Source: Thermoanaerobaculales bacterium (lineage in GTDB: Bacteria > Acidobacteriota > Thermoanaerobaculia > Thermoanaerobaculales > Sulfomarinibacteraceae). From it: a stretch of 64,000 nucleotides of DNA. Below the pieces are notes generated by a model, which saw only the letters and a program-made list of their open reading frames with translations, had not been told where the DNA came from and did no database searches. This document shows positions 1,247-24,691 of this stretch, in pieces. The position numbers and the translations under genes are program-made. Where the stretch lies: positions 2,006 through 66,005 of the forward strand of contig JAOZPW010000001.1 of the NCBI GenBank assembly GCA_029932545.1. Reading direction: 5' to 3'. Position 1 is the first letter of the stretch, and every line of letters begins with the position of its first letter.

Positions 1247-1840
1247 ATGAAAAACCTTGTTGCAAAGAAAGCCCCTAATTTTACCGCCCAGGCGGTCCTG
1301 GAAGACAATACAATGGCGGACCTGACCCTGTCGGACTACCGTGGCAAATACGTCGTGCTGTTCTTCTACCCCCTTGATTTCACCTTCGTCTGCCCATCCG
1401 AGATCATCGCCTTCGATGACAAGCTTGACGAGTTCAACAAGCGCAACTGTGAGGTCATCGGCGTCTCTGTCGACTCGCAGTTCAGCCACTGGGCCTGGAA
1501 GAACACCCCCCGGAATCAGGGCGGTCTTGGTCAGATCCGTTTTCCAATCGTCGCCGACCTCAAAAAGACGATCTCCAAGGATTACGGGGTTCTCCTCAAG
1601 AAAGAGGGGATCGCGCTGCGGGGTCTGTTTATTCTGGACAAGGAAGGTGTCATTCACCATTCGACGATCAACCACCTCTCCCTGGGTCGGAATGTTGACG
1701 AAGTACTGAGAACTCTCGACGCCCTTCAGTTCACCGAAGAGCATGGTGAGGTCTGCCCTGCCAACTGGAATCCAGGAGATGCCGCCATGAAGCCGACGTC
1801 CGATGGCGTCGCCGAATACCTTGGCGAGCACATGAGCTAG
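1247..1840 (+). CDS. typical 2-Cys peroxiredoxin (AhpC/Prx1 family)
   Basis: 197-aa ORF with peroxidatic Cys motif FTFVCPSE and resolving Cys in [17 protein letters not shown] lies just upstream of the ATG. Confidence 0.9.
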
Positions 1841-1895
1841 AATGTCCATTGGGCCGGCCTTCGGGCCGGTGCCAATTACTCTCACTGGAGGTCCC

Positions 1896-2402
1896 ATGAA
1901 CCCGAACGTCGAAAAAGCCATCAACGAACAGATCCACGCAGAGTTCTTCTCGTTCTACTTGTACCTGTCGGTCTCTGCCTATTTCAAGACCATCCATCTG
2001 GACGGCTTTGCCAACTGGATGAATATCCAGGCCCAGGAGGAGTACTCACACGCGATGAAGCTCTTTGACTTTCTGATTGAACGGGGTGGACAGATCGAGT
2101 TGATGGCCCTGGACGCGCCCCAACATCAGTGGGCGTCGCCCTCAGCGGCCTTCGACGCCGTTCTGGCTCATGAGAAGTACATCACCGATCGCATCAATAC
2201 TCTGGTCGATATCTCGACCCAAGAGGGAGACCATGCGACCACCGTGATGCTGCACTGGTATGTCAGCGAACAGGTCGAAGAAGTCGCAACAGCCGACACC
2301 CTGACCAATCAGGTCAAGATGGTCGAAGGCTCACCACATGGGCTGCTGATGCTCGACCGCGAGCTCGGTGCACGCCAGATGGCCACTGCTGAACCTGTTT
2401 AA
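1896..2402 (+). CDS. ferritin-like iron storage protein
   Basis: ORF 1842..2402 trimmed to ATG 1896, which follows GGAG. Ferritin-type helix pattern (INEQIHAEFFSFYLYLS, QAQEEYSHAMK), about 168 aa. Confidence 0.8.
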   Translation: MNPNVEKAINEQIHAEFFSFYLYLSVSAYFKTIHLDGFANWMNIQAQEEYSHAMKLFDFLIERGGQIELMALDAPQHQWASPSAAFDAVLAHEKYITDRINTLVDISTQEGDHATTVMLHWYVSEQVEEVATADTLTNQVKMVEGSPHGLLMLDRELGARQMATAEPV

Positions 2403-2418
2403 CTTTCCCGACGATGAC

Positions 2419-2456
2419 AAAAAGGGCGTACAGCCAATCGGTTGCACGCCCTTTTT
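2419..2456. terminator. bidirectional rho-independent terminator candidate
   Basis: AAAAAGGGCGT (2419..2429) pairs with ACGCCCTTTTT (2446..2456), flanked by an A-run and a T-run. It lies between the convergent ferritin and rimK-like genes. Confidence 0.6.
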
Positions 2457-2638
2457 GAACCTCGTTGCGTTTTTTTCAAGTCGTTCGGTAATGCACCCGA
2501 TATCAAGGGTCTCAACGACATCCATGATCCGGAAGACTTTTATCGCTCTACCCTCCCCCGACAATGCGCGCAGCGCATTATAGGAGCCTGTGGGGCAGAG
2601 GCCGGGGATCAACTCAACTCTGTAGTCGCTTCGGCGGC

Positions 2639-3526
2639 CTATGCCCTACAGGCTCCTAGTCCTACCGCAAATCGAACAATCTCCGACGCCACATCAATGC
2701 CCGTCGCCTGCTCAACCTGTTTGAAGCCCGGCGTTGGGTTGACCTCACAGACGACGGCCCCACATGGGCCCTCGAGAAGGTCCACGCCACAAAGCCCCAG
2801 TCCCAGCACCTTTCCGGCAGCCACGGCAAGTTCAACCTGGCAATCGTCCAGATCGGCGCTCCGGGCAGATCCTCCCCGGGCCCCATTGGATCGCCATTCA
2901 CCTTTCACTGCCTCGAAGTACGCCGACGCGATGACACGATCCCCGGCGATCAGAACCCTTGTTGACCGGCCATCGCATTCGATCCATTCCTGCACAACAT
3001 ACTCATCCCCCAGACGCCACAGGGAATCCAATACGCTTTCCAGGTGGTCCAGTTGCCGGCACACGATCACACCGACTCCCATTCGTGACCGACGAAGTTT
3101 GACGACAACCGGCAGGCCCAGAATCGAGACGGCAGCGGTAGCGGTTCTTTCGGGATCCATCGCCGCGAGGGTCTTTGGGGTCGGAAGACCCGCGTGCGAA
3201 AGCATCAAGAGACTTCGCCAATGATCTCGCCCTACACGAAATGACTCGGCCCCATTGGGCGTGGGCACGCCTGCACTTTGAATGGCCTCGACCATCGCCA
3301 GCATGGTCTCCGGTCGCCAGTTACCGACGCGAACGATCGCACCCCGAGGTGCGGGGTTGAGCACACTTCGCCCGTCGAGCAGAATGTCCGTCATCCCACC
3401 GCCCGTTTGCACGACCGCCTGAGTCGCATCGACGATTTCGACGTCAACGCCCAAATCGTTCCCCGCTTCGACCAGCCGACGGTTGGTGCCAACATCGGGT
3501 CGCGCGGTCAGAACCAACAATTTCAT
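2639..3526 (-). CDS. RimK-family ATP-grasp alpha-L-glutamate ligase
   Basis: ORF 2639..3574 trimmed to ATG at 3526 (MKLLVLTARPD...). ATP-grasp signatures are LPVVVKLRRSRMGVGV, VVQEWI and CEVNPTPGF. Confidence 0.75.
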   Translation of the reverse strand: MKLLVLTARPDVGTNRRLVEAGNDLGVDVEIVDATQAVVQTGGGMTDILLDGRSVLNPAPRGAIVRVGNWRPETMLAMVEAIQSAGVPTPNGAESFRVGRDHWRSLLMLSHAGLPTPKTLAAMDPERTATAAVSILGLPVVVKLRRSRMGVGVIVCRQLDHLESVLDSLWRLGDEYVVQEWIECDGRSTRVLIAGDRVIASAYFEAVKGEWRSNGARGGSARSADLDDCQVELAVAAGKVLGLGLCGVDLLEGPCGAVVCEVNPTPGFKQVEQATGIDVASEIVRFAVGLGACRA

Positions 3527-3624
3527 CGTACCGGTCCGCAAAAGACGCCCCTGGTTTTTGTCTGCATATCTCACCCGCTTCCCAAAGCTTCGGACAATTC
3601 TAACCCGGGTGTTTATACTGACGT

Positions 3625-4062
3625 ATGGTCGTACACACCGAGAGAATCGAAGTTCAGACCCAAGGCCACGGTCATACTTTGGATCTGACCCAGGAGAGTG
3701 CTCTGTGGTTGAACCGGATCAAGGCTGGCGACGGTCAGATGACCGTATTCGTCCCCGGGTCCACCGCTGCCATGACCACCATAGAATATGAACCCGGAGC
3801 GCTGCAGGATCTCGAAGAAGCCTTGGAACGGCTCGCTCCGTCTGACGTTGAATACCACCATGATCGAAGATGGGGCGACGGCAACGGATTCTCCCATCTC
3901 CGGGCGGCCGTTCTCGGGCCGTCGCTTACAATTCCCGTCACCAACGGGCGGTTGCTGCTGGGGACCTGGCAGCAGTTGGTCTTAGTGGAGTGTGATGTCC
4001 GCGATCGCACGCGGTCCATCGTCATGTCGTTTGTCGGCACCGCCGACCCGGGAGATTCCTGA
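3625..4062 (+). CDS. YjbQ/UPF0047 family protein (secondary thiamine-phosphate synthase-like)
   Basis: 145-aa ORF with the YjbQ pattern: HTERIEVQTQGHGHTLDLT, TTIEYEPGALQDLEEALERLAP, and the HLRAAVLGPS...PV..G.L.LGTWQ region. Confidence 0.75.
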   Translation: MVVHTERIEVQTQGHGHTLDLTQESALWLNRIKAGDGQMTVFVPGSTAAMTTIEYEPGALQDLEEALERLAPSDVEYHHDRRWGDGNGFSHLRAAVLGPSLTIPVTNGRLLLGTWQQLVLVECDVRDRTRSIVMSFVGTADPGDS

Positions 4063-4472
4063 TGCCCCATCTGATACTCGAAGGACCAACAGATTTTTCA
4101 TCCGCCGTCACCGGGATCCACACCGAAGCCCGACGTTGGGGGCGAGCCGTACTCAAGACGGAAGGGTGGTGGTCGCGATCCGACGCCGGGGCCCTGCTTT
4201 TCGAAGGGGTCATCGTAGAGTTTTCTCGCGCCCTGCACCCGCTTGCCTTGGTGGCCCCGCATCACGGTGACACCAGCGTACGACTCTGGCCCTATATTGA
4301 TATCGAGAGAACCCACGCCGTCCAGCGCTGGTTGGCCCTGATTGCCGCAGATCTCCAGAATGGCGGCGCCGGCGTACTCAAGAAAACCAACATCCCGGAC
4401 GAGATCTTGCACGGACTCGAGTTCAAGAAAGGTCACGTCCTGTCAAGTGGTGTACGAAGGGCCTATGCGTAA
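4062..4472 (+). CDS. hypothetical protein; 3' end runs into the IS inverted repeat
   Basis: 136-aa ORF overlapping the yjbQ-like stop (ATGA). The last ~8 codons lie inside the left inverted repeat of the IS256-family remnant, so the C-terminus may be altered. Confidence 0.4.
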   Translation: MPHLILEGPTDFSSAVTGIHTEARRWGRAVLKTEGWWSRSDAGALLFEGVIVEFSRALHPLALVAPHHGDTSVRLWPYIDIERTHAVQRWLALIAADLQNGGAGVLKKTNIPDEILHGLEFKKGHVLSSGVRRAYA

Positions 4473-5491
4473 TCCATGACGATCATGCCGAGAGCGGTAG
4501 TGATTCTGGCAGGACCTCCCTTCGTGTTGGTGGTTGAAATGTTGGTGATCGATCTTTGGCGGCGGAGAGAGCCGTAAGAGTCATGTACCGACGTCCGATG
4601 GCCCACTCGTCGGATTGCTCGCACAAGAGAGCGCCTACAAGACGAATGATGGATGACCGATTTGGGAAGATGCCGACGACACCGGTACGGCATTTGATTT
4701 CCTTATTGAGGCGTTCCTGGGGGTTGTTGGACCAGATTTTCTTCCAGATTTCGATTGGGAATACGGCGAAGGCCAAGATGTCATGTGCGGCCTCTTCAAG
4801 AAGCGCTGCAGCTACCGGAAAGTTTCCCTCGAGTTGGTCCACAACCACCCAAAGTCGGTTCCAGACAGAATCTGCATCAGGTTGAAGGAAAATCGTACGA
4901 ACCAACGTGGCGACAAACGCCTGGGCATTCTTGGGCACTTTGGCTAACAGATTCCTCATGAAATGAGTCCGGCAGCGCTGCCAAGACGTACCTGGAAAAG
5001 TTGTTTGGCAATCTCGGAAACCTGGGATTTGGAGATTCCGTCGATCCCGAGCTGTTGGACCAGGCGTTCCACTTTTCGGGTCGAAACGCCCAAGACATAA
5101 CTCTCAGCGATGACGTTGAGAAGGGCCTTTTCAGACCTCCGCCGGGCTTCCAAGAGATTGTTGGGAAAGTAGGACCCCCTTCGCAGTTTTGGAATCTTCA
5201 GGTCAATCGTCCCGACCCGGGTATCCCAACGACGGCTCCGAAATCCATTCCGGTGATTCGTCCGATCAGGGCTACGTTCCCCATAGCCGGCACCACAAAT
5301 CGAGTCTACCTCTGCACCCATGAGTTCATCAGCCATCACCCGCACCATCTCCCGAAGCGTATCCGGGTCATCCTCCTCGAGCCTCTTGCGGATCTCATTG
5401 AAAAACGCCATATTGTTCTTGGTCATTGCTGTCTCCTTATTGAGGTTTGGTCATCTCATGGAGAATTACGCAATGGCCTTCATTATGCAAG
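4449..5491 (-). mobile_element. IS256-family insertion sequence, internally deleted derivative (~1.04 kb)
   Basis: Imperfect terminal inverted repeats: GTGTACGAAGGGCCTATGCGTAAT..CCATG at ~4450..4478, matched by the reverse complement of CATGGAGAATTACGCAATGGCCTTCATTATGCA at ~5457..5489. They enclose the split transposase ORFs. Boundaries are good to about 10 bp. Confidence 0.65.
4483..5426 (-). pseudogene. IS256/mutator-family transposase, internal deletion plus frameshift
   Basis: N-terminal piece 4956..5426 (...GVSTRKVERLVQQLGIDGISKSQVSEIAKQ). C-terminal piece 4483..4959 extends upstream in its own frame as TFPGTSWQRCRTHFMRNLLAKVP. The junction is at ~5000, and together the pieces give ~314 aa against ~400 aa for intact family members. 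The missing block is where the first two DDE aspartates normally lie. Confidence 0.85.
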
Positions 5492-5623
5492 TTTCGTCGG
5501 CCCGCTTGTAACGCCTGTGAGGTTGTGGAAAGCGGGGCCCCTACCCCCCTTCCCACAGCCCATCACAGGCACGACGACGATGAACAACTCTTCACTCTTA
5601 CACCACGTCGGTGGACTCTACTC

Positions 5624-5685
5624 TTGGGTTTTCGTTCGCACTGGACATGCCAACATCCAGTGACCGTTGCGTTGATTTGTTAGAA
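5624..5685 (-). other. truncated attC (R''/L'' half only) at the distal end of the array
   Basis: 62 bp matching the ORF-proximal half of the long attC family at 8549..8659, with ~5 mismatches by eye, including TTCTAAC (reverse complement of GTTAGAA 5679..5685). The partner arm (GTTGGCATG...CTCAGC...R') is absent. Confidence 0.7.
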
Positions 5686-5719
5686 GGCAGGCGGTATTTC
5701 ATTCGTTAAGACCTGATGC

Positions 5720-6268
5720 TCAGTTGCCGAGATCCAGATTTTCGGAAATGAAGTCCTCAAGAAACTGAAGGTCCCGTCGTTCAACAGTGATCTGATTTCC
5801 AAAATCGATCGCCCTGCGTTCCGTCTGAGCGAGGCGAGCTTCTATTTCCTTGGTTGACCTCCGGATCTTTTCGAGCATTTCAGACATTTCTTCTGATTCA
5901 GGTCCAGAAAGTTCACGGGCATTTTCTTCCATTCGCTCGATCATCTCTTCGGACCTCACGACAGATTCAGCGAGTGTCTCTCGGTATCCATTGGCCTGCA
6001 TCAAGAGTGTTTCCAGGCTCTCAACTTTGCGCGCCCGAAACTGGAGATAAGCGATTGCAAGTTCGAGTTTCTTGAGTTCGATCTCCCGGCCTTTTTGTTC
6101 AACGCCGTCACTCAAGACTCTCAACAACTCCCGATTCACCTCCACAAGGGACGCCAGTTCCCCGCATTTGACGGTGCCGGGTTCCGAAACCCCCTGGGCA
6201 GATCCTGGTCCCCCAATCAAAAGGTACACGGCCACAAGACCTACGACGAGGAAGTTTCGAAATCTCAT
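5720..6268 (-). CDS. cassette 6: secreted coiled-coil protein of unknown function
   Basis: 182-aa ORF with an AGGGGGG RBS, signal-peptide-like N-terminus (MRFRNFLVVGLVAVYLLIGGPGSAQG), then Glu/Arg/Leu-rich heptad-like sequence. Confidence 0.7.
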   Translation of the reverse strand: MRFRNFLVVGLVAVYLLIGGPGSAQGVSEPGTVKCGELASLVEVNRELLRVLSDGVEQKGREIELKKLELAIAYLQFRARKVESLETLLMQANGYRETLAESVVRSEEMIERMEENARELSGPESEEMSEMLEKIRRSTKEIEARLAQTERRAIDFGNQITVERRDLQFLEDFISENLDLGN

Positions 6269-6305
6269 TGACCCCCCTGCAAATGAATGCTCACTCTGAT
6301 CTGCC

Positions 6306-6372
6306 TTATAACTTGAAGCTCAATGGACCAGACCGCGCAGCGGTATGGGTCCATTGGAGCGATCCGTTAGGC
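6306..6372 (-). other. attC site (67 bp) of cassette 5
   Basis: Plus strand reads TTATAAC-TTGAAG-CTCAATGGACC...GGTCCATTGGAG-CGATCC-GTTAGGC. The L arms pair, with one extra base on the ORF-proximal arm. Confidence 0.8.
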
Positions 6373-6451
6373 GACGTAATTTATTCATGATTAATAGGTT
6401 ACGAGGGATTGTATGATTGTTGTCCCTGGCATCAGATTTCCGTAGAGGCGG

Positions 6452-7609
6452 CTACCAAATCCCAGCGGCATGTTGAGTTCGAAGGATCTCGACCATTTCC
6501 TCCTTGAGATCGCCAGGGGCACTCTCTATTGCTTCATTGAGAGGTTGGTTCTTTGTGCCGTTTAGATCCACAAGTCGCGTTTGGACGTGTTCCTTAACTC
6601 GAAAGTGCTGCCTTATGTTGCTGGAAAGAGACCATTTTGCTGAACCTCCCGTAAGGAAGAGGTTGAGGTCCTTTCTCTCGTCACAGAACGCGAGGTTACT
6701 GATCAATAGGTCAAGATATGCAATGTCGCCGCTTGCGAAGTAGGCACCCCAAAACATGTCGTTTTGGGACGGGGATACCGGTAGGGCTGTCTTGATGGCC
6801 GAAGTGTCGGCTGAGAGTTTCAATGCATTTGTGAGAACACCTCGAGGGCCATCCGGTTGTTTGGAAATGGTCTCCTTCCACGCGCCTATTCTTGTTGGAT
6901 TTGAAGAAAACACCTCTGTAAGGAAGCCAACGGCTGGTGGGAAGGTTTCGCTATTTTCCAGAATATCGCTTTCACTGAGAGCGTAAATCGCTTCGTCAAT
7001 GAACTCGGGCCTCGGATCAAGGTAATAGGAGTCCATCAATTCGCCCAAATCGAAGGACTCGAGCCTGTGCTTTGCTTCGAAGGATCTCTTGAGTTCCAGA
7101 CATACATCTGCCACGCGATCACAGACGTTCGCGGTGAAAGTGTACTCACCAAGAAGATCCTGAGGTTCGATGATTAATCCTAGATAGGCGCGACCAAGTT
7201 GCATTCGTTGCTCGGGAGGCGGCGCGACTCCTGAACACAAATCGTTGTCTGGCTCTGACGCGTACTCACTACCATCTGGGCCGATCACCGCCAAGTCAGC
7301 GATGATATCGCAGTGCCCTTTATTATTGGCTTGCCCCCCAGAGAAGAACACAAATGCAACGATCATGTCACCGCGTTTCACATCACTCGTCGTCGAAAGG
7401 CTCGGGGTATATCCGGGAGATGCCGGTTGGTCCCATTGCTCCAGGAACGATTCAGGTTCAGACGATAGGAGCATCATGGAACCGAATGAGCCTACGGACT
7501 TTCTCCACTCTGAGTCGGGGACTACACCGTCCTCGCTGTACCATTGCGCTTGTACCTGGCTAGGAATCAGAATAGCGATGGCGATGAGTGGCAATAGGAA
7601 AATCTTCAC
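6452..7609 (-). CDS. cassette 5: secreted protein of unknown function
   Basis: 385-aa ORF with a GTG start behind AAGGAGG and signal peptide MKIFLLPLIAIAILIPSQVQA. No family recognised. Confidence 0.7.
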   Translation of the reverse strand: MKIFLLPLIAIAILIPSQVQAQWYSEDGVVPDSEWRKSVGSFGSMMLLSSEPESFLEQWDQPASPGYTPSLSTTSDVKRGDMIVAFVFFSGGQANNKGHCDIIADLAVIGPDGSEYASEPDNDLCSGVAPPPEQRMQLGRAYLGLIIEPQDLLGEYTFTANVCDRVADVCLELKRSFEAKHRLESFDLGELMDSYYLDPRPEFIDEAIYALSESDILENSETFPPAVGFLTEVFSSNPTRIGAWKETISKQPDGPRGVLTNALKLSADTSAIKTALPVSPSQNDMFWGAYFASGDIAYLDLLISNLAFCDERKDLNLFLTGGSAKWSLSSNIRQHFRVKEHVQTRLVDLNGTKNQPLNEAIESAPGDLKEEMVEILRTQHAAGIW

Positions 7610-7654
7610 GATACCTCCTTCGAAATGGGTAGCGGTTCGGTCATGCGAAACGAG

Positions 7655-7729
7655 GCCTAACGGTCCGAGTTCAGCGGACCGGGGCCGCGGCCGCCGCGGA
7701 CCGGGGTCCGCTGGAACGAGATGTTAGGC
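7655..7729 (-). other. attC site (75 bp) of cassette 4
   Basis: GCCTAAC (7655..7661) and GTTAGGC (7723..7729) are perfect complements. Inner arms TTCAGCGGACC / GGTCCGCTGGAA pair with one extra G. The cassette stop codon TAA lies inside R''. Confidence 0.85.
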
Positions 7730-8125
7730 ATCCGCAATCCGCTCAGAGATCTTCACCATCGGCTCAGGATTGACGTAGAGCTGCCAAACCGCAACCAGTT
7801 CATCTTCGACGACGACACGCCACGCCGCGGGAACCACCCAGTGATTCTCTGGCTTGAGAGCCCCGGCCTGATCGAATGTGCCCTCCGCGACACCCAGCAG
7901 AACCACGACGTTGCCTCTGGCGAATGTGTCCTTCACCTGGATTCGGAAGTCCGGCACCATCGAGAAGTAACTCCTCCACCCGTCACGCATCTGCTCGCGT
8001 CCGCAATGCTCACTGCCGTCTGAGTCCACAAACACGTGGCCCTCTGTCATCAATTCCGCAAGACGATCTGGATTCCCGGAGTTGATGGCGTCAACGAAGG
8101 AGCGTGCAGTTTCCGTTGAAGTCAT
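7724..8125 (-). CDS. cassette 4: SnoaL/NTF2-like (DUF4440-type) small protein
   Basis: 133-aa ORF behind an AGGAG RBS. The N-terminal ARSFVDAINSGNPDRLAELMTEGHVFVDSDG pattern is typical of the nuclear transport factor 2 / SnoaL fold. Confidence 0.7.
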   Translation of the reverse strand: MTSTETARSFVDAINSGNPDRLAELMTEGHVFVDSDGSEHCGREQMRDGWRSYFSMVPDFRIQVKDTFARGNVVVLLGVAEGTFDQAGALKPENHWVVPAAWRVVVEDELVAVWQLYVNPEPMVKISERIADA

Positions 8126-8145
8126 TTGCCGATGCTCCTGAAGCG

Positions 8146-8235
8146 GCCTAACGACCGAACTCAGTTGACCGGCAGCACGGCGCAGAGCGAAGCGGCGCGA
8201 CGGGTTGCTGGGTCAACTGCAGTGATTTGTTATGT
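8146..8235 (-). other. attC site (90 bp) of cassette 3
   Basis: GCCTAAC (8146..8152) ... CTCAGTTGACC ... GGTCAACTGCAG-TGATTT-GTTATGT (8229..8235). There is an extra base in the ORF-proximal L arm, and the stop codon lies inside R''. Confidence 0.85.
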
Positions 8236-8526
8236 GTTTGCATTGAACTTAGGCCAGCGGTTGTAGCCTTTTTGTGGGTTATTTGACTCATTTTTGCGAA
8301 TATACTCAACCTCTTTAGCTGACAGCTCTTCTTCTGTTGCTGTCTCTGACTCCCAAAGAATTTGTTTTCTTATCGTATAATCTTTGCGGACATCATCTGG
8401 AAGGCTTTTGAAATCTTCATTGACTATGGCCATGTCCGGGCTGCCATAATATCTATAACTACCTACACTATCTTTACCAATGTATATCTTGCCTGTTGGG
8501 CACGTAATCATATAGATTTGTTTCAT
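8230..8526 (-). CDS. cassette 3: stand-alone GIY-YIG nuclease-domain protein
   Basis: 98-aa ORF: IYMITCPTGKIYIGKDS...YYGS (GIY...YIG block), then SAKEVEYIRKNESNNPQKGYN (E...N block). The cassette is visibly AT-rich relative to its flanks. Confidence 0.65.
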   Translation of the reverse strand: MKQIYMITCPTGKIYIGKDSVGSYRYYGSPDMAIVNEDFKSLPDDVRKDYTIRKQILWESETATEEELSAKEVEYIRKNESNNPQKGYNRWPKFNANT

Positions 8527-8548
8527 TGGTGTATCTATTTCTTTTTAC

Positions 8549-8659
8549 ACATAACGCTTGAACTCAGCGGCGCTGGTTGTTGGCATGGCCGGTGCCTTTG
8601 GGTTTTCGTTCGCACTGGACATGCCAACAATCAGTGACCGTTGCCGTGATTTGTTAGAC
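8549..8659 (-). other. attC site (111 bp, long family) of cassette 2
   Basis: ACATAAC (8549..8555) ... CTCAGCGGCGCTGGTTGTTGGCATG ... CATGCCAACAATCAGTGACCGTTGCCGTG-ATTT-GTTAGAC (8653..8659). Roughly 85-90% identical by eye to the site at 9358..9469. Confidence 0.85.
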
Positions 8660-8728
8660 CGCGAAGTGTTACCTATGTCCATGGACTGTTTTGTTGCCTC
8701 TGGCCCAGCCGGCCCCCACATCTGCAAA

Positions 8729-9076
8729 TTACCGAGTCTGATCAGGTTTCATCCCCAGTTGAACTCTGACAACTCGTTCAACGGATATCATGTCTGGCTG
8801 CGAAAGTTCACCGAGCCGCGTACCCAAACGCCCTTTGGTTACGGTTGCAATCTGATCGGCCATTGCCTTCCGCTGTTCGCCGTTGAGGTCCACGTAGGTT
8901 TCGCTGGGATACAACTTGGACACGTTACTTGTGAGCGGAACAACCTGGACTCGATTCAAATGCTGGTTGGCTGCATCATTACTGATGATGACGGCAGGCC
9001 TTCGCTTCCGAACTTCACCACCAAGTGATGGATCAAAATTGACCCACCACACCTCACCGCGTTTCATCAGCGACAT
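8729..9076 (-). CDS. mazF: cassette 2: MazF/PemK-family type II toxin (endoribonuclease)
   Basis: 115-aa ORF with the MazF/PemK N-terminal signature ([29 protein letters not shown]...VVPLTS). It overlaps the upstream antitoxin ORF by 23 bp. Confidence 0.85.
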
Positions 9077-9284
9077 CCATCATCGTGGTTTCTGCCCACT
9101 CCATTGCCTCTGTTTCGCGCTCTTCTTCCTGAGCCATTTCACGGTAGGCGGCAGACAACTCTTCCTCCACGACGTGGGGACGAACAAGTGATTCGATAAA
9201 ACGGCTAATTCGTCTTCGACCGACTATTCGGTGAAGACCGTGATAGACATGCTCGTCAACAGTGATGGTTAGCTTTTTTTGCAT
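9054..9284 (-). CDS. cassette 2: ribbon-helix-helix type antitoxin
   Basis: 76-aa ORF with N-terminal beta-strand/helix pattern [18 protein letters not shown] and an acidic C-terminal tail. It overlaps the mazF-like gene and has an AGGAGA RBS. Confidence 0.7.
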
Positions 9285-9296
9285 GGCCGTTCTCCT

Positions 9297-9333
9297 ATAC
9301 GTGTAATATACGTGTAATAGAGAATATTGGCAA
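9297..9333 (-). promoter_or_regulatory. cassette-internal sigma70-type promoter with tandem 11-bp operator-like repeats
   Basis: Minus strand reads TTGCCA (9333..9328), 17 nt, TATATT (9310..9305), then AGGAGA and ATG 9284. The tandem direct repeat ATACGTGTAAT x2 (9297..9307, 9308..9318) overlaps the -10 and the transcription start. Confidence 0.6.
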
Positions 9334-9357
9334 GGGGTTCACACCATCGATTCGACG

Positions 9358-9469
9358 GTCTAACGTTTGAGCTCAGCGGCGCTGGTTGTTGGCATGGCCG
9401 GTGCTTTTGGGTTTTCGTTTCGCACTAGACATGCCAACAGCCAGTGACCGCTGCAGTGATTTGTTAGGT
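9358..9469 (-). other. attC site (112 bp, long family) of cassette 1
   Basis: GTCTAAC (9358..9364) ... GCTCAGCGGCGCTGGTTGTTGGCATG ... CATGCCAACAGCCAGTGACCGCTGCAGTG-ATTT-GTTAGGT (9463..9469). The stop codon of ORF 9464..9901 lies inside R''. Confidence 0.85.
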
Positions 9470-9901
9470 TTCCTCCGGGGTTTCTGTTGACGTCCAGAGC
9501 TGTCCTGGACGAACTTCACAACAGTTGTAACACCCGCTTTTACCGTCACCCTTGTTGAACCAAACATGTTTCCATCCAACGGCATCACAAGAATCTGGGC
9601 GCAATTCTGACCAAAAGGCTTCTATGAATTCCGCTGGTTCCTGTGGTATCACTCTCATGGTGCTCGCGACCTCAACAACGTCGGTGCCGAGAGGATCTTC
9701 CAGTTCCTCTATCCAATACTCATCAAGGTATTCAATGCCAACGTCATCGGAACCGTACCGTTCAAAATCAGCGAGAATGACCTCCTCCGCTTTTGAACGA
9801 CTCTCTGCTTGAACAACCACCACGCGCTCCTCGTACCTGGTGATCTTGTTGGGATTCTCATTCCGAAACTGGAATAGACCCAACGCACTGAACCACTTCA
9901 T
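9464..9901 (-). CDS. cassette 1, distal ORF: hypothetical protein with Cys-rich C-terminus
   Basis: ORF 9464..9913 (TTG) trimmed to ATG 9901 (MKWFSALGLFQF...). The C-terminus carries SCDAVGW...SGCYNCCEV. Possibly DUF4288-like, recalled from memory only. Confidence 0.6.
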   Translation of the reverse strand: MKWFSALGLFQFRNENPNKITRYEERVVVVQAESRSKAEEVILADFERYGSDDVGIEYLDEYWIEELEDPLGTDVVEVASTMRVIPQEPAEFIEAFWSELRPDSCDAVGWKHVWFNKGDGKSGCYNCCEVRPGQLWTSTETPEET

Positions 9902-9995
9902 TAAACCGTCCAATCCTGAGCCTGAGGCCTAAGCTCTGCGGGCTTCCCCCGCATGGGTGAGGCCCACTGCAATGAAGTGTCACGCAGTGTCGCCA

Positions 9996-10394
9996 TTATG
10001 CCCCTTGGGACTTGAGTTCCGCCATCACTTCAGCGAGTCCTTCGTGGGCCGACTCATCTGCACCAAGATCAATCGCGCGCCGGAAAAACGGCTCCGCCTT
10101 TCCGGGGTCGGCGCAGATGGCGTCGTAGTAAAACCCAAGGCTCTCAAACGCCTCAGGGTCTTCGGGGTCGATCTCCGCTGCCCTGGTATAGCTGGCTTCT
10201 GCATCCTCGAGGCTGTAACGCCCCTCATCGTTGGATACCTGAATCAGATCACCTCTGAGGCACCAAAGCTCAATGGAATCTGGATGTACTTCCAAGGCGC
10301 GCTCGACAAGCTCAAGATCTTCGGCGCAGACGCAGTCATTCTTGGAGACGGTCTGGCCGATCTGGGCGGCAATCTCTTCTGGTTTCTCTTTCAT
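9996..10394 (-). CDS. cassette 1, proximal ORF: small TPR-like repeat protein
   Basis: ORF 9996..10403 (GTG) trimmed to ATG 10394, which has a GAAGG RBS at good spacing. Helical-repeat motifs are AEASYTRAAEIDPEDPEAFESLGFYY and AEPFFRRAIDLG. Confidence 0.65.
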   Translation of the reverse strand: MKEKPEEIAAQIGQTVSKNDCVCAEDLELVERALEVHPDSIELWCLRGDLIQVSNDEGRYSLEDAEASYTRAAEIDPEDPEAFESLGFYYDAICADPGKAEPFFRRAIDLGADESAHEGLAEVMAELKSQGA

Positions 10395-10403
10395 ACTGTT
10401 CAC

Positions 10404-10485
10404 ACCTTCGAATAGGAACCTAACTATGTAATTAGGTTGCAGAAACGCAACCTATTTCTCGGCGGATTGTTATGTTGCAGGGTGG
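10404..10485 (-). other. attI recombination region; predicted crossover box GTTAGGT
   Basis: ACCTAAC at 10418..10424 (minus strand GTTAGGT) lies inside the palindrome AACCTAA-CTATGTAA-TTAGGTT (10417..10438). A second inverted repeat AGGTTGC-AGAAAC-GCAACCT follows at 10434..10452. This is the space between the first cassette and intI. Confidence 0.6.
10423..10450 (-). promoter_or_regulatory. candidate cassette promoter (Pc) inside attI
   Basis: Minus strand reads TTGCGT (10450..10445), 16 nt, CATAGT (10428..10423), firing into cassette 1. Sequence match only. Confidence 0.3.
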
Positions 10486-10514
10486 TTGCTTTGTCCATGT
10501 CCCAAGATTACAAT
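10486..10514 (+). promoter_or_regulatory. candidate intI promoter
   Basis: TTGCTT (10486..10491), 17 nt, TACAAT (10509..10514), about 40 bp upstream of ATG 10554. Confidence 0.5.
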
Positions 10515-10553
10515 AGGTTGAGAGTCCCGTCCACGCTGCGGATAGGAAATTCG

Positions 10554-11573
10554 ATGAAAACAAATATTGCATCCGCAGCAACCAGGAAACCCAATCTTCT
10601 CGACCGAGTTCATGAAGTGGCGAGGGTTCGCCACCTTGCGTATCGGACAGAGCAGAGTTACGTCAACTGGATCAAGAGATTCGTTCTCTTTCACGATATG
10701 CGCCACCCTGCCCAAATGGGAAAAATCGAGGTGGAGGGTTTTCTCACCCACCTGGCTGTCCGCGATCGTGTGTCGGCCTCCACTCAGAATCAGGCACTTT
10801 CTGCCATCTTGTTCTTGTACAAACACGTTCTCAACCAGAAGCTGCCCTGGCTCGATGATGTCATCCGAGCCAAAAGACCCAAGCGTATTCCCATTGTCCT
10901 CTCGCGATCCGAAATAACCCGCCTGTTCGTCCACCTCGACGGAACTCCCCGCTTGGTTGCCGGCCTCTTGTACGGTTCTGGCCTTCGCTTGATGGAGGCT
11001 CTGCGTTTGAGAGTTCATGATCTCGATTTTGACTACGGTCAGATTCTCATTCGAGACGGGAAGGGCGGCAAGGATCGCCACACCGTTCTTCCTTCTGGGT
11101 TGATTCCCGACATCAAGCAACATTTGGTATTGGTCGAATCGATCCACCACAGCGACCTGGAACGAGGAGAAGGCCAGGTGAAGCTCCCCTCTGCGCTGGC
11201 AAGAAAGTACCCCACCCGCGCCACCGCGTGGGGTTGGCAATGGGTTTTCCCTTCTCCGACATTTTCATCCGACCCTCGTGACGGCATGGTTCGGCGCCAC
11301 CACCTCTACCACCAACGAATCCAACGCGCGGTTTCACACGCTGTCCGAGCAGCCATGCTCAACAAGACGGCAACCTGCCATACGCTCCGGCACTCGTTTG
11401 CGACCCATTTGCTCGAGGACGGTTACGACATCAGAACGGTGCAGGAACTCCTGGGCCACAAAGATGTCAAGACGACGATGATCTATACGCATGTGATGAA
11501 TAATGGCCGCTGCGGTGTGATCAGCCCGTTGGACAGGGGCCGAATCAAGGGGGGCCGAAGGGGTGATCCATAG
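10554..11573 (+). CDS. intI: integron integrase IntI (tyrosine recombinase)
   Basis: Recombinase boxes GLRLMEALRLRVHDLD, HTLRHSFATHLLEDG and LLGHKDVKTTMIYTHV, plus the IntI-specific insertion LPSALARKYPTRATAWGWQWVFPS. ORF 10437..11573 was trimmed to ATG 10554. Confidence 0.93.
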   Translation: MKTNIASAATRKPNLLDRVHEVARVRHLAYRTEQSYVNWIKRFVLFHDMRHPAQMGKIEVEGFLTHLAVRDRVSASTQNQALSAILFLYKHVLNQKLPWLDDVIRAKRPKRIPIVLSRSEITRLFVHLDGTPRLVAGLLYGSGLRLMEALRLRVHDLDFDYGQILIRDGKGGKDRHTVLPSGLIPDIKQHLVLVESIHHSDLERGEGQVKLPSALARKYPTRATAWGWQWVFPSPTFSSDPRDGMVRRHHLYHQRIQRAVSHAVRAAMLNKTATCHTLRHSFATHLLEDGYDIRTVQELLGHKDVKTTMIYTHVMNNGRCGVISPLDRGRIKGGRRGDP

Positions 11574-12326
11574 CTGCCGCAGGTTGATGTGGATCCTAAA
11601 ACCCTTGAAATAGGGATGTTGGCGGATCTCGCAACATCACATCCTCTGTTCGTTTGTGTCTCAATGAAGGCCATGAAGCCTCGGATCGAGTCTACCAGGG
11701 ATCAAAAGAGCCGAAGATCCAGAACCGGCCGCTGGCGCCGCCGCTGCACCCGTCACCGACGCGGTCGCTGTTCCTCATTCTGCCTACTGTCGCCGACTCT
11801 GCCTCTGTCGCTGCGTACTGAACCCGCCGCTGAATCTGCCGCTGTCCCAGACAGCTATCACGGCTTTCCAGCCCCGGCCTTCGGGGGCGCTTCAAGGTTA
11901 CCGTAAGCTCAACGACTGTCGATCGCCCCCGCTCGGTGCATTTTCCTCAAGGGGCTCCGTAACAGAAATCGGGGGGGAACCGCCCCTTGAGGAAAATGAC
12001 CTCGGCAGCCTACACCGTAGGCCGAGACTCGATTGCCGACGGTGCCGCCGTGGGTTGCCCGGTGTCGCCCTTCTTCGCATCGACGGCTCGGTTGGGGGTC
12101 CTGCCCGGTGAAGAGAGGGCGCACCCGGCACTCCCCGTCCAAGAGGGGCACTCCCGGTTTCCAGCGTCACAATAGAGCCTCTTGCAAGACTCCGAGAGTC
12201 ACGATGCGGGGCAGGAGCCCCGCGCTCCAACTTGCATTCCCGGCAAGCCTCTTTGTGGCTATTCCTCTGCGCCTCTGCGTTGATTTCCTGGCCCGAAGGG
12301 CCCCATGCAATTCGTTCGACGAATTG

Positions 12327-23028: not shown

Positions 23029-23793
23029 ATGTCTGAGTTTGTTCTGTCGGTTGTCATCCCAGCTTATAACGAAGCCGATCGTCTACCGAAGACACTCGAG
23101 AGCATTGACCTTTTTCTCCTTGAGGCCGAGGACCTCGGGCCGGCCGAGATCATCATCGTGGATGACGGGTCTAAAGACCGAACATCAGAGGTTGGCAATG
23201 CCTTCCAATCCTTCGGAAATACCGTCGTGCGGGTTTTTCGCCACCAAAAGAACCAGGGGAAAGGCGCTGCCGTCCGAACGGGATTCGAACATTCGAAGGG
23301 ACGGCAAGTCCTCCTGTCGGACGCGGACCTTGCCGCTCCGATTGCAGGACTTCGTCGTATGACTCCGGCATACGGTGACTCGACCGTGGTCGTGGGGAGT
23401 CGAGCAGTGGACCGTGCCCTGCTCTTTGATCCTCAACCCCTCTATCGGGACCTGATGGGTCGCGCCTTCAATCTGATGGTCCGGGCTCTTCTGCTCCCGG
23501 GGATATTTGACACACAGTGCGGCTTCAAACTCTTCCCTGGAGGGCTTGCTCGGTCGTTGGCAATGGTCCAACGGACTGATGGTTTTGCTTATGACGTTGA
23601 GTTGTTGGCATTATCCTTGTCCTGGGGTTACAGCATCGTCGAAGTAGGCGTGCCCTGGGGCCATGTTGAGGCCTCCCGAGTACAGCCGGGGAGGCATAGC
23701 GCCCAGATGTTCCGAGATCTCCTAAGAATTTCCCTTCGGCGTTGGTCCCTCGGACTTCCACGTGAGCCGCATGAAGGGGTCTCCCTTGGCTGA
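23029..23793 (+). CDS. family 2 glycosyltransferase (dolichyl/polyprenyl-phosphate glycosyltransferase-like)
   Basis: 254-aa ORF with LSVVIPAYNEADRL, IIIVDDGSKD and LLSDADL motifs. Confidence 0.8.
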   Translation: MSEFVLSVVIPAYNEADRLPKTLESIDLFLLEAEDLGPAEIIIVDDGSKDRTSEVGNAFQSFGNTVVRVFRHQKNQGKGAAVRTGFEHSKGRQVLLSDADLAAPIAGLRRMTPAYGDSTVVVGSRAVDRALLFDPQPLYRDLMGRAFNLMVRALLLPGIFDTQCGFKLFPGGLARSLAMVQRTDGFAYDVELLALSLSWGYSIVEVGVPWGHVEASRVQPGRHSAQMFRDLLRISLRRWSLGLPREPHEGVSLG

Positions 23794-24691
23794 TGCCTGG
23801 TTAAACACGGCCTTTCTTGAGCACCTTGAATGGGAGAGAAATCTGTCACCAGCCACCCTGAAGGCCTACCGCCGAGAGATTGCCAGGGCCGTGGGATTTT
23901 TCTCCAGCGACCTCGGTCTGAAGGACCCGTCGGGGGTCACCCCGGCATCCGTGCGCTCTTTCTTGGCTCATCTCCATGGCCTTGGGCTCAGCCCTCGATC
24001 CACCGAGCGAGCTCTGGCTGCCATAAGAACCTATTTCCGGTTTCTTGTGGTCGAGAATATTCTTTCGGCCAACCCGGCAGACACCGTGGTGCATCCTCAA
24101 CGCCGGCGCCGAGCCCCTCCAGTAACTCCATTGGCCGTCATCGAGGATCTCCTGGAATCCTTTCCGCCAACCCCCGCCGGAATCAGGGATCGCACCCTGG
24201 TGGAGTTTCTCTACGGATCAGGACTCCGGGTCGGGGAACTGGTCGGTCTGGATCTCACCGATCTGCAACTCAAAGCGCGTCTCGTCCGCGTCCGAGGTAA
24301 AGGACGCAAGGAACGTATCGTGCCCTACGGTACCCAGGCCGCAGCTGCACTGAGCACCTACCTCCCCGTCAGGGCTCAGTGGAAACAGGGCGCCACGCTC
24401 TCCACCGAAGCCCTTTTCCTCAACCAACGCGGGGGACGCCTGACTGACCGGTCCGTGCGGAGAATTCTCGCGGCTGCTGTCCTCAAGACCGCGACCCAAC
24501 ACCAAGTGCATCCTCACGCCCTTCGGCACGCTTTTGCTACTCACCTTCTCGAGGCGGGAATGGACCTCCGGGCCATCCAGGAACTCCTGGGCCACGCATC
24601 GTTGGCAACCACCCAGATCTATACAACCGTCGACCTGGCGCACTTGATGACCGTGCATCGCAAGAGTCATCCGAGGTCCCGGAGGAAGTAG
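23762..24691 (+). CDS. tyrosine recombinase XerC/XerD family
   Basis: 309-aa ORF: SPATLKAYRREI, GLRVGELVGLDLTDL, HALRHAFATHLLEAG, LLGHASLATTQIYTHV-like (QIYTTV). Confidence 0.85.
   Translation: MSRMKGSPLADAWLNTAFLEHLEWERNLSPATLKAYRREIARAVGFFSSDLGLKDPSGVTPASVRSFLAHLHGLGLSPRSTERALAAIRTYFRFLVVENILSANPADTVVHPQRRRRAPPVTPLAVIEDLLESFPPTPAGIRDRTLVEFLYGSGLRVGELVGLDLTDLQLKARLVRVRGKGRKERIVPYGTQAAAALSTYLPVRAQWKQGATLSTEALFLNQRGGRLTDRSVRRILAAAVLKTATQHQVHPHALRHAFATHLLEAGMDLRAIQELLGHASLATTQIYTTVDLAHLMTVHRKSHPRSRRK

Follow-up and report, generated by a model that had tools for sequence, protein, structure and literature searches.

The stretch of DNA analyzed here, called the window, comprises 64,000 nucleotides of contig JAOZPW010000001.1 from a Thermoanaerobaculales bacterium (GenBank assembly GCA_029932545.1) and contains a chromosomal integron, one cassette of which encodes a type II toxin-antitoxin (TA) pair. 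We consider it likely that this cassette captured a complete, self-contained TA operon, coding for an RHH (ribbon-helix-helix)-like MazE antitoxin and a MazF toxin of the PemK type, together with the native promoter and operator of that TA family. The evidence for the operator is comparative: two boxes with an ACGT core occupy a conserved position at the promoter in most of the related loci, whose upstream regions cannot otherwise be aligned.

Two palindromic boxes at the promoter

A reading of the window from its sequence alone (the sequence-only reading) had placed upstream of the two genes a near-consensus promoter belonging to the cassette itself (TTGCCA, 17 nt, TATATT) and two exact tandem copies of an 11-bp sequence (9297..9318) covering the -10 hexamer and the start site, regarded as a plausible autorepression operator. 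Both promoter and repeat are present exactly at these positions. The promoter fits the sigma-70 consensus at 10 of 12 positions and is the sole sigma-70-like site of the whole integron (5500..11700, either strand). The sequence ATACGTGTAAT occurs as two exact head-to-tail copies (9297-9307 and 9308-9318) and, allowing up to one mismatch, nowhere else in the 64 kb, for a chance expectation of 0.10 matches. The junction between the copies falls inside the -10 hexamer, and the predicted start of transcription, about 7 nt downstream of the -10, lies within the distal copy.

The position of this promoter is conserved in relatives. We fetched 80 genome loci containing relatives at 61-99% identity, from the phyla Acidobacteriota, Planctomycetota, Chloroflexota, Desulfobacterota, Bipolaricaulota, Armatimonadota, and others; the footprint was sampled in 83 distinct loci of an antitoxin family that has at least 2876 protein clusters. 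The pattern ACGT-N7-ACGT, which corresponds to the 11-bp spacing of the cores, was found no more than 70 nt from the antitoxin ATG in 63 of the 83 loci, and ACGT-N8-ACGT (12-bp spacing) in 11 more, so that two boxes are present in 74 of the 83. Over the other 559,372 nt of these same loci, the 11-bp-spaced pattern appears 3 times. Alignment on the first core gave a consensus composed of cTTG, 17 nt, and TATTAT followed directly by ACGTATA.tATACGTATA and then by a purine-rich, GGAG-like stretch, the TTG at the -35-equivalent distance being conserved in the relatives. Each box of the consensus is a 10-bp palindrome, TATACGTATA, with which the boxes of the window, TACACGTATA, agree at 9 of 10 positions. 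From this comparison, what had been called an 11-bp direct repeat is better seen as two near-palindromic 10-bp boxes located one helical turn apart: the two exact copies are there, and it is their description as a direct repeat that has to be replaced.

The boxes occur in two registers relative to the promoter, both with a 17-nt spacer. In register A (39 loci), the -10 hexamer ends where box 1 starts. In register B (about 25 loci, including the window, L001, L002, L006, and L008), the -10 hexamer lies between the box cores, and its first T is the T of ACGT. The boxes overlap the region of the -10 and the start in both registers. This strong phylogenetic footprint argues for a cis-acting element that is read by the co-inherited antitoxin, that is, for the autorepression operator that had been proposed. 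A search of the literature for the box sequence combined with the word "antitoxin" returned no relevant paper, and a two-box operator consisting of TATACGTATA, one base, and TATACGTATA appears not to have been described in the searchable literature. More distant homologues carried by proteobacterial plasmids (L184 to L187; 53-55% identity) have upstream TACGT motifs that are single or spaced by 7 bp, not 11 bp.

A tandem 11-mer in an AT-rich promoter might instead be a neutral duplication generated by slippage and devoid of any operator role, the TA genes being expressed constitutively or regulated elsewhere. The exactness of the two copies, as in a recent duplication, is what this explanation would predict, and a locus with a 97%-identical antitoxin (L007) has one copy and still a TTGCCA-17-TATAGA promoter. 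We nevertheless give slippage almost no credence, since two ACGT boxes separated by 11 or 12 bp are present in 74 of 83 relatives from many phyla in surroundings that cannot be aligned, and independent slippage cannot yield a pattern that is found 3 times in the other 559 kb of these loci.

The boxes could also act through RNA, as a leader element affecting translation or stability or as a MazF cleavage site, or they could be read by a regulator of the host rather than by the antitoxin. Both boxes are downstream of the -10 in the commonest register, where they would be transcribed, and they contain UAC, the cleavage motif reported for MazF-mt1 (MazF9). In the register of the cassette itself, however, box 1 precedes the -10 and would not be transcribed, yet it is conserved as well as box 2. 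Palindromes of 10 bp spaced by one helical turn are characteristic of DNA-binding proteins that act as dimers, RelB being an example (PMC2812701). The element also travels with the TA family across phyla and onto proteobacterial plasmids, as expected for a cis-encoded regulator. We hold an RNA-level or host-factor role to be quite improbable on these grounds and retain the antitoxin operator as the preferred explanation of the boxes.

Several results weigh against the reading of this region as the promoter and operator of the TA family. A promoter match of this quality is not above chance, with 1 site found for 2.0 expected in 7500..10600 or 4.1 in 5500..11700, and it was scored on the sigma-70 consensus, which may not be that of the host; because the single match does not exceed chance, the promoter call rests on the conserved position in relatives. 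No clear two-box site is present in 9 of the 83 relatives, and the L007 locus has one box only, yet has kept a plausible promoter. Comparison of the antitoxin strand with the boxes provided no direct tie between the two, since both are near-invariant and the covariation test is powerless. Finally, the transcription start is a prediction made from sequence, and so are the binding of the antitoxin to DNA, co-repression by the toxin, toxicity itself, addiction, and read-through.

The toxin and the antitoxin

The toxin matches PF02452 over profile positions 1-108 of 109 (E=1.3e-26; 93.4 bits for a gathering score of 23.1), which bears out its earlier assignment to the MazF/PemK family of endoribonucleases. 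Its closest solved structure is that of Mycobacterium tuberculosis MazF9 (5hjz; E=1.5e-17), to the RP and PVTS motifs of which residues R26-P27 and P47-L-T49-S50 of the toxin align. We take these residues to be catalytic, as in published MazF structures. The score obtained with the NCBIfam equivalog model for E. coli MazF (NF007386) was 46.4 bits, under the cut-off of 120; by these scores, the toxin is a member of the superfamily and not an orthologue of E. coli MazF. Two start codons are available: the ATG at position 9067 provides a protein of 112 residues and a 14-nt overlap with the antitoxin gene, and the upstream ATG an overlap of 23 nt. The start at 9067 is more likely, because the overlap then matches that of annotated homologues. 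The toxin gene is present in 83 of 85 related loci, and in most of them the antitoxin gene comes first and its end overlaps with the toxin gene, as in the window; the proteobacterial plasmid homologues are annotated as the same antitoxin-toxin pair.

The antitoxin belongs to a family that is widespread and homogeneous: among the 120 best-scoring clusters, 115 are at least 75% identical, and nearly all of the 120 listed have a length of 76 residues. Members are named "predicted CopG family antitoxin" in JGI data and "addiction module antitoxin" by NCBI. The N-terminal strand KKLTIT shows no variation among the 44 homologues that were aligned and is the same in almost every one of 84 loci read, and the plasmid homologues have K-R/K-M-T-I-T at the same place. 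Alignment of residues 1-20 with the segment MKKRLTITLSESVLENLEKM of CopG (beta-strand plus helix A) by hhalign gave a probability of 85.8%, over these 20 residues only. A Pfam scan of the 44 aligned antitoxins at E<10 returned sub-threshold matches to VAPB_antitox, RHH_6, and DUF6364 (best E=0.001-0.01).

The earlier assignment of the antitoxin to the RHH type has to be set against the following results. At E<0.01, the antitoxin matched no Pfam family, and no RHH family reached its threshold. Its match to the NCBIfam MazE model NF050104 (residues 4-66; E=3.6e-6) scored 27.2 bits for a cut-off of 65, so that by this measure the antitoxin is related to that model and is no member of it. Comparison with PDB sequences (phmmer and profile searches) gave nothing significant, the RHH proteins E73 and CopG being found by the profile search at E=0.11 and E=0.4, respectively. 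The AlphaFold2 model of the monomer (pLDDT, the per-residue confidence measure, of 75) has an extended or coiled segment at residues 1-10, a helix at 11-20, a turn at G22, and a helix at 26-75, with no strand, and a Foldseek search of the PDB with this model found no significant match (best E=4). The monomer model neither supports nor refutes an RHH fold, because a monomer cannot form the RHH ribbon. Comparison of the antitoxin with RelB by hhalign revealed no meaningful similarity. We regard an RHH-type antitoxin as probable: the sub-threshold MazE-like and RHH-like matches and the CopG-family naming sustain this part of the sequence-only reading, but membership in an RHH family above threshold was not obtained.

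The cassette and its integron

The TA unit is bounded by the G/TTAGAC junction at one end and by its own attC at the other (Table 1). The ends of the cassette as first described (8555-9363) are both crossover points, located exactly at 8555 (the G of R' GTTATGT) and at 9363/9362 (the TT of R' GTTAGAC). Counted by attC, the cassette is the second of the array, as had been proposed; the caveat is that cassette 1 holds two open reading frames (ORFs).

Table 1. Positions of the integron features and of the elements of the TA cassette in the window
Feature	Position	Strand	Remarks
Complete TA integron cassette, 809 bp (promoter/operator, antitoxin, toxin, own attC)	8555..9363	-	G/TTAGAC (9364/9363) and GTTATGT (G = 8555)
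-35 hexamer TTGCCA	9333..9328	-	Consensus scan
-10 hexamer TATATT	9310..9305	-	17-nt spacer after the -35
Operator box 1 (predicted), proximal copy ATTACACGTAT	9308..9318	-	ACGT core 9313..9310; upstream of and overlapping the -10
Operator box 2 (predicted), distal copy ATTACACGTAT	9297..9307	-	ACGT core 9302..9299; over the predicted start
Ribosome-binding site AGGAG	9296..9292	-	7 nt before the antitoxin ATG; read from sequence
Antitoxin gene, MazE-like, probably with an RHH N-terminal domain	9284..9054	-	76-aa ORF
Toxin gene, PemK/MazF endoribonuclease family	9076..8729	-	115-aa ORF; PF02452
Integron integrase gene intI	10437..11573	+	TIGR02249; true start probably near 10554
attI core GTTAGGT	10424..10418	-	Read from sequence
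Cassette 1	10423..9364	-	Two ORFs: TPR 10403..9996, DUF4288-like 9913..9464
attC 1 (of the preceding cassette; gives the 5' junction of the TA cassette)	9469..9358	-	R'' ACCTAAC 9469..9463; R' GTTAGAC 9364..9358
attC 2 (of the TA cassette itself)	8659..8549	-	R'' GTCTAAC 8659..8653; R' GTTATGT 8555..8549
attC 3	about 8232..8146	-	
attC 4	about 7727..7655	-	
attC 5	about 6372..6310	-	
attC 6 (last of the array)	5694..about 5620	-	

Over 8551..9365, attC included, metagenome contig L001 and the window are 96% identical, and the flanks of the contig are unrelated on both sides. Locus L002 has the same 5' junction, GTTAGACCGTCGAATCGAT, but a different attC before it. Both contigs have kept the promoter and the repeat. 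The presence of the same cassette with different neighbors in these two contigs indicates that it moves as a discrete unit, promoter included. A different fate is found in L007, a contig of a Holophagae metagenome-assembled genome (JAUXDC010000175.1) that has 86% nucleotide identity to the window flank 2660..4430 and probably represents the orthologous integron of a related genome. Three attC sites of the window type are followed there (1700-6400) by the same TA genes (97% antitoxin identity). These genes have lost both cassette ends, retain one copy of the 11-bp sequence, the counterpart of box 2 being deleted, and directly abut a conserved RimK/UPF0047 flank, which suggests that a TA unit located where an array ends can become fixed there.

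Most members of the TA family are encoded by chromosomes or plasmids in ordinary surroundings and not in integrons, and a tblastn search with IntI detected an integrase-like match beside just 1 of 85 TA loci (L023). Two home-made attC finders were too unspecific for counting cassettes among the relatives, and the hidden Markov model built for the window-type attC was alone reliable. With the crude finder, hairpins resembling attC (GCCTAAC...GTTAGGC) were seen near the TA genes of relatives from other phyla, in L073 (Capsulimonadaceae chromosome OZ255718.1), L050, and L023. Integrons may have acquired members of the family on more than one occasion.

The integrase encoded by intI matches TIGR02249 with 467 bits (cut-off of 265) over profile positions 1-314 of 315. 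Six attC-delimited cassettes run leftwards from attI in the same orientation, with all attC sites on the minus strand. The capacity of these sites to form hairpins was seen as stems and folding energies, their recombination by IntI being predicted. The two sites that flank the TA cassette are about 95% identical to each other, and together with the last site of the array (5620..5694) they form one sequence type (82-95% mutual identity). The sites at 8146..8232, 7655..7727, and 6310..6372 are unrelated to this type in sequence. In L001, the TA cassette is likewise associated with the first type, which was also found in L007, L166, L140, and L151.

Two ORFs on the minus strand beyond the array (4956..5426 and 4483..4959) encode parts of a Mutator-family (IS256-like) transposase, matching profile positions 13-144 and 258-377 of 379; as judged from these fragments, the pair is a degraded insertion sequence (IS). 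Similarity of the last attC to the others ends at about 5620, where the degraded transposase begins, and the array appears to have been cut short there by the IS. With six cassettes, the array is well below the tens to hundreds that define large sedentary chromosomal integrons.

The two ORFs of cassette 1 are separated by a region (9914..9995, minus strand) containing a 39-nt hairpin, GGCCTCAC...CTTAGGCC (z = -2.4). A canonical attC between the TPR and DUF4288-like ORFs was considered and rejected, the cores of the hairpin reading CAC/CTT, not AAC/GTT. The hairpin may be a decayed attC, the decay having fused two cassettes, in which case the TA unit would historically have been cassette 3. The present cassette 3, immediately downstream of the TA cassette, holds an AT-rich 98-aa ORF (8230..8526, minus strand) that had no match in Pfam, NCBIfam, or PADLOC; any transcript reading through from the TA promoter would reach this gene before all others. 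Elsewhere in the window, a 309-aa ORF (23762..24691, plus strand) is 72% identical over 75 nt to a segment in the 3' part of intI (24521-24595 and 11385-11459, respectively), and it probably encodes a tyrosine recombinase of the XerC/XerD type, not a second integron integrase.

On the other side of intI, a structured noncoding element of roughly 270 nt (11868..12168, plus strand) is located between the stop codons of intI (11573) and uvrA (12327). It recurs beside the TA genes in L001 and L008, and its copies are numerous and dispersed: a single conserved pattern of 25 nt was present in 98 metagenome contigs, and nhmmer detected about 150 copies in both orientations, often 2-4 within a few kb, between unrelated housekeeping genes and with flanks that are not conserved. 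An alignment of 79 distinct copies revealed abundant compensatory covariation (one pair being GC in 44 and AU in 34) and a hairpin of variable length. Identification as transfer-messenger RNA, tRNA, or a known Rfam family was rejected, since no match was found. The features of the copies point to either a structured repeat, of the miniature inverted-repeat transposable element or repetitive extragenic palindrome kind, or an unclassified family of noncoding RNA, and the proximity of the element to the integron looks incidental.

Model, possible benefit, and comparison with known systems

According to the model that we favor, a sigma-70-type promoter would direct synthesis of a single mRNA with a short leader, from which the antitoxin and the toxin would be translated in a coupled manner. 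Antitoxin dimers would insert their N-terminal beta-ribbon (KKLTIT) into the major groove of the two near-palindromic boxes and would sit side by side along a single face of the helix, occluding the -10 and the start and thereby switching transcription off. The toxin, bound by the C-terminal helix of the antitoxin, would probably act as a co-repressor. Loss or excision of the cassette, or degradation of a labile antitoxin, would leave a free MazF-type RNase, and growth would stop; the cassette would thus be addictive, and deletions that include it would be penalized.

Transcripts may also pass through attC and reach cassette 3 or those beyond it. Their extension into cassette 3 is plausible because the coding strand lacks an intrinsic terminator downstream of the toxin gene: no terminator-like site was found on the minus strand from 8729 to 7400, and those hairpins at the attC sites that resemble terminators are all on the other strand. 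The TA promoter is the sole consensus-like promoter of the integron and is followed by no terminator after the toxin gene, which has led us to consider that it might be the main driver of cassettes 3-6, gated by the antitoxin:toxin ratio and coupling otherwise "silent" cassettes to the stress-induced decay of the antitoxin. We regard this as unlikely; if true, the cassette would provide an internal, conditionally derepressed cassette promoter instead of a mere addiction module.

The selected benefit is a separate matter from the molecular mechanism, which would be the same if the cassette served anti-phage abortive infection or selfish addiction instead of stabilizing or driving the array. The array is short and IS-truncated, so that little silent cargo would need protection, and most members of the TA family are found outside integrons. 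Neither TA protein matched a PADLOC defense model, nor did the four other cassette proteins submitted to that search, which argues against a defense function. The published function of TA cassettes is to penalize cassette loss (PMC13108822), and the L007 unit, fixed without cassette ends at the junction between array and chromosome, is compatible with retention by addiction. A defensive or selfish role is possible in our view, if rather doubtful. The sequence-only reading had invoked the stabilization of large arrays by TA cassettes; that role is indeed published, but it applies weakly to an array of six cassettes with an IS-cut end, which weakly motivates a stabilizing function and weighs against this part of the favored explanation. 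Array stabilization, selfish addiction, and phage defense are all candidates for the selected benefit.

The contribution of the window is a clean, boundary-resolved TA cassette of the MazEF type from a non-proteobacterial chromosomal integron, into which the native promoter and predicted operator of the TA family came along with the genes. To this is added an operator model for a widespread, uncharacterized antitoxin family, consisting of two 10-bp palindromes one helical turn apart and used in two -10 registers. The finding leaves the understanding of integrons or TA systems unchanged. The literature already describes TA cassettes that carry a promoter of their own, cassettes of the PemK/MazF kind, and operators of RHH-type MazE located at the -10.

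TA cassettes "containing their own promoter" are a recognized class in chromosomal integrons and have been proposed to penalize cassette loss (PMC13108822). A study of Treponema-type integrons recovered PemK/MazF cassettes as well, and promoters could be identified there in the TA cassettes alone (PMC4909258). The cassette had been contrasted with typical promoterless cassettes; it does have its own promoter, but self-promotion is the published norm for the TA class. The known comparators are relBE, higBA, parDE, phd-doc, and ccdAB in the Vibrio superintegron and hicAB, higBA, and PemK in Treponema. Like these, the unit described here is an attC-bounded, two-gene type II operon with its own promoter, located in a chromosomal array beside intI, and by analogy cells losing it should be killed or arrested (PMC13108822). 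Unlike them, it is found in another host lineage, that of the Acidobacteriota, and in an array of six cassettes, and its MazE-like/MazF family is mostly non-integron.

The M. tuberculosis MazEF systems offer a comparison for the proteins and for operator position. MazE4, MazE6, MazE7, and MazE9 combine an N-terminal RHH domain with a C-terminal toxin-binding region, and MazE6 is an RHH antitoxin that binds an operator containing the -10 (PMC9477884). The cassette resembles MazEF9 (MazEF-mt1) in its toxin, the best solved relative of which is MazF9, and MazEF6 in the location of its predicted operator at the -10. It differs in that its antitoxin has no significant match to a solved structure, and the M. 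tuberculosis operators have been described as single TANNNT-containing sites, in contrast to the two palindromic ACGT boxes found here.

For the arrangement of the boxes, the E. coli RelBE operator relO may serve as a model. RelB binds there in dimeric form to neighboring palindromic half-sites of 12 bp that lie along one DNA face, and its toxin serves as a co-repressor (PMC2812701); adjacent palindromic sites occupied on the same face could be used by the cassette antitoxin in a similar manner. The differences lie in the toxin fold, which is that of RelE and not of MazF, in the sequence of the boxes, and in the lack of hhalign similarity between the antitoxin and RelB. The RHH repressors CopG, Arc, and MetJ offer an analogy for the proposed entry of a beta-ribbon into the major groove of short repeats; CopG, aligned over 20 residues only, lacks the long C-terminal toxin-binding helix of the cassette antitoxin. 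E. coli MazEF (chpA) shares with the cassette a toxin of the PF02452 superfamily, an overlapping operon with the antitoxin gene first, and autoregulation of the promoter, which is predicted for the cassette. However, E. coli MazE has a DNA-binding domain of the AbrB type, not RHH (PMC9477884), and the cassette toxin is below the MazF equivalog cut-off (46 versus 120 bits).

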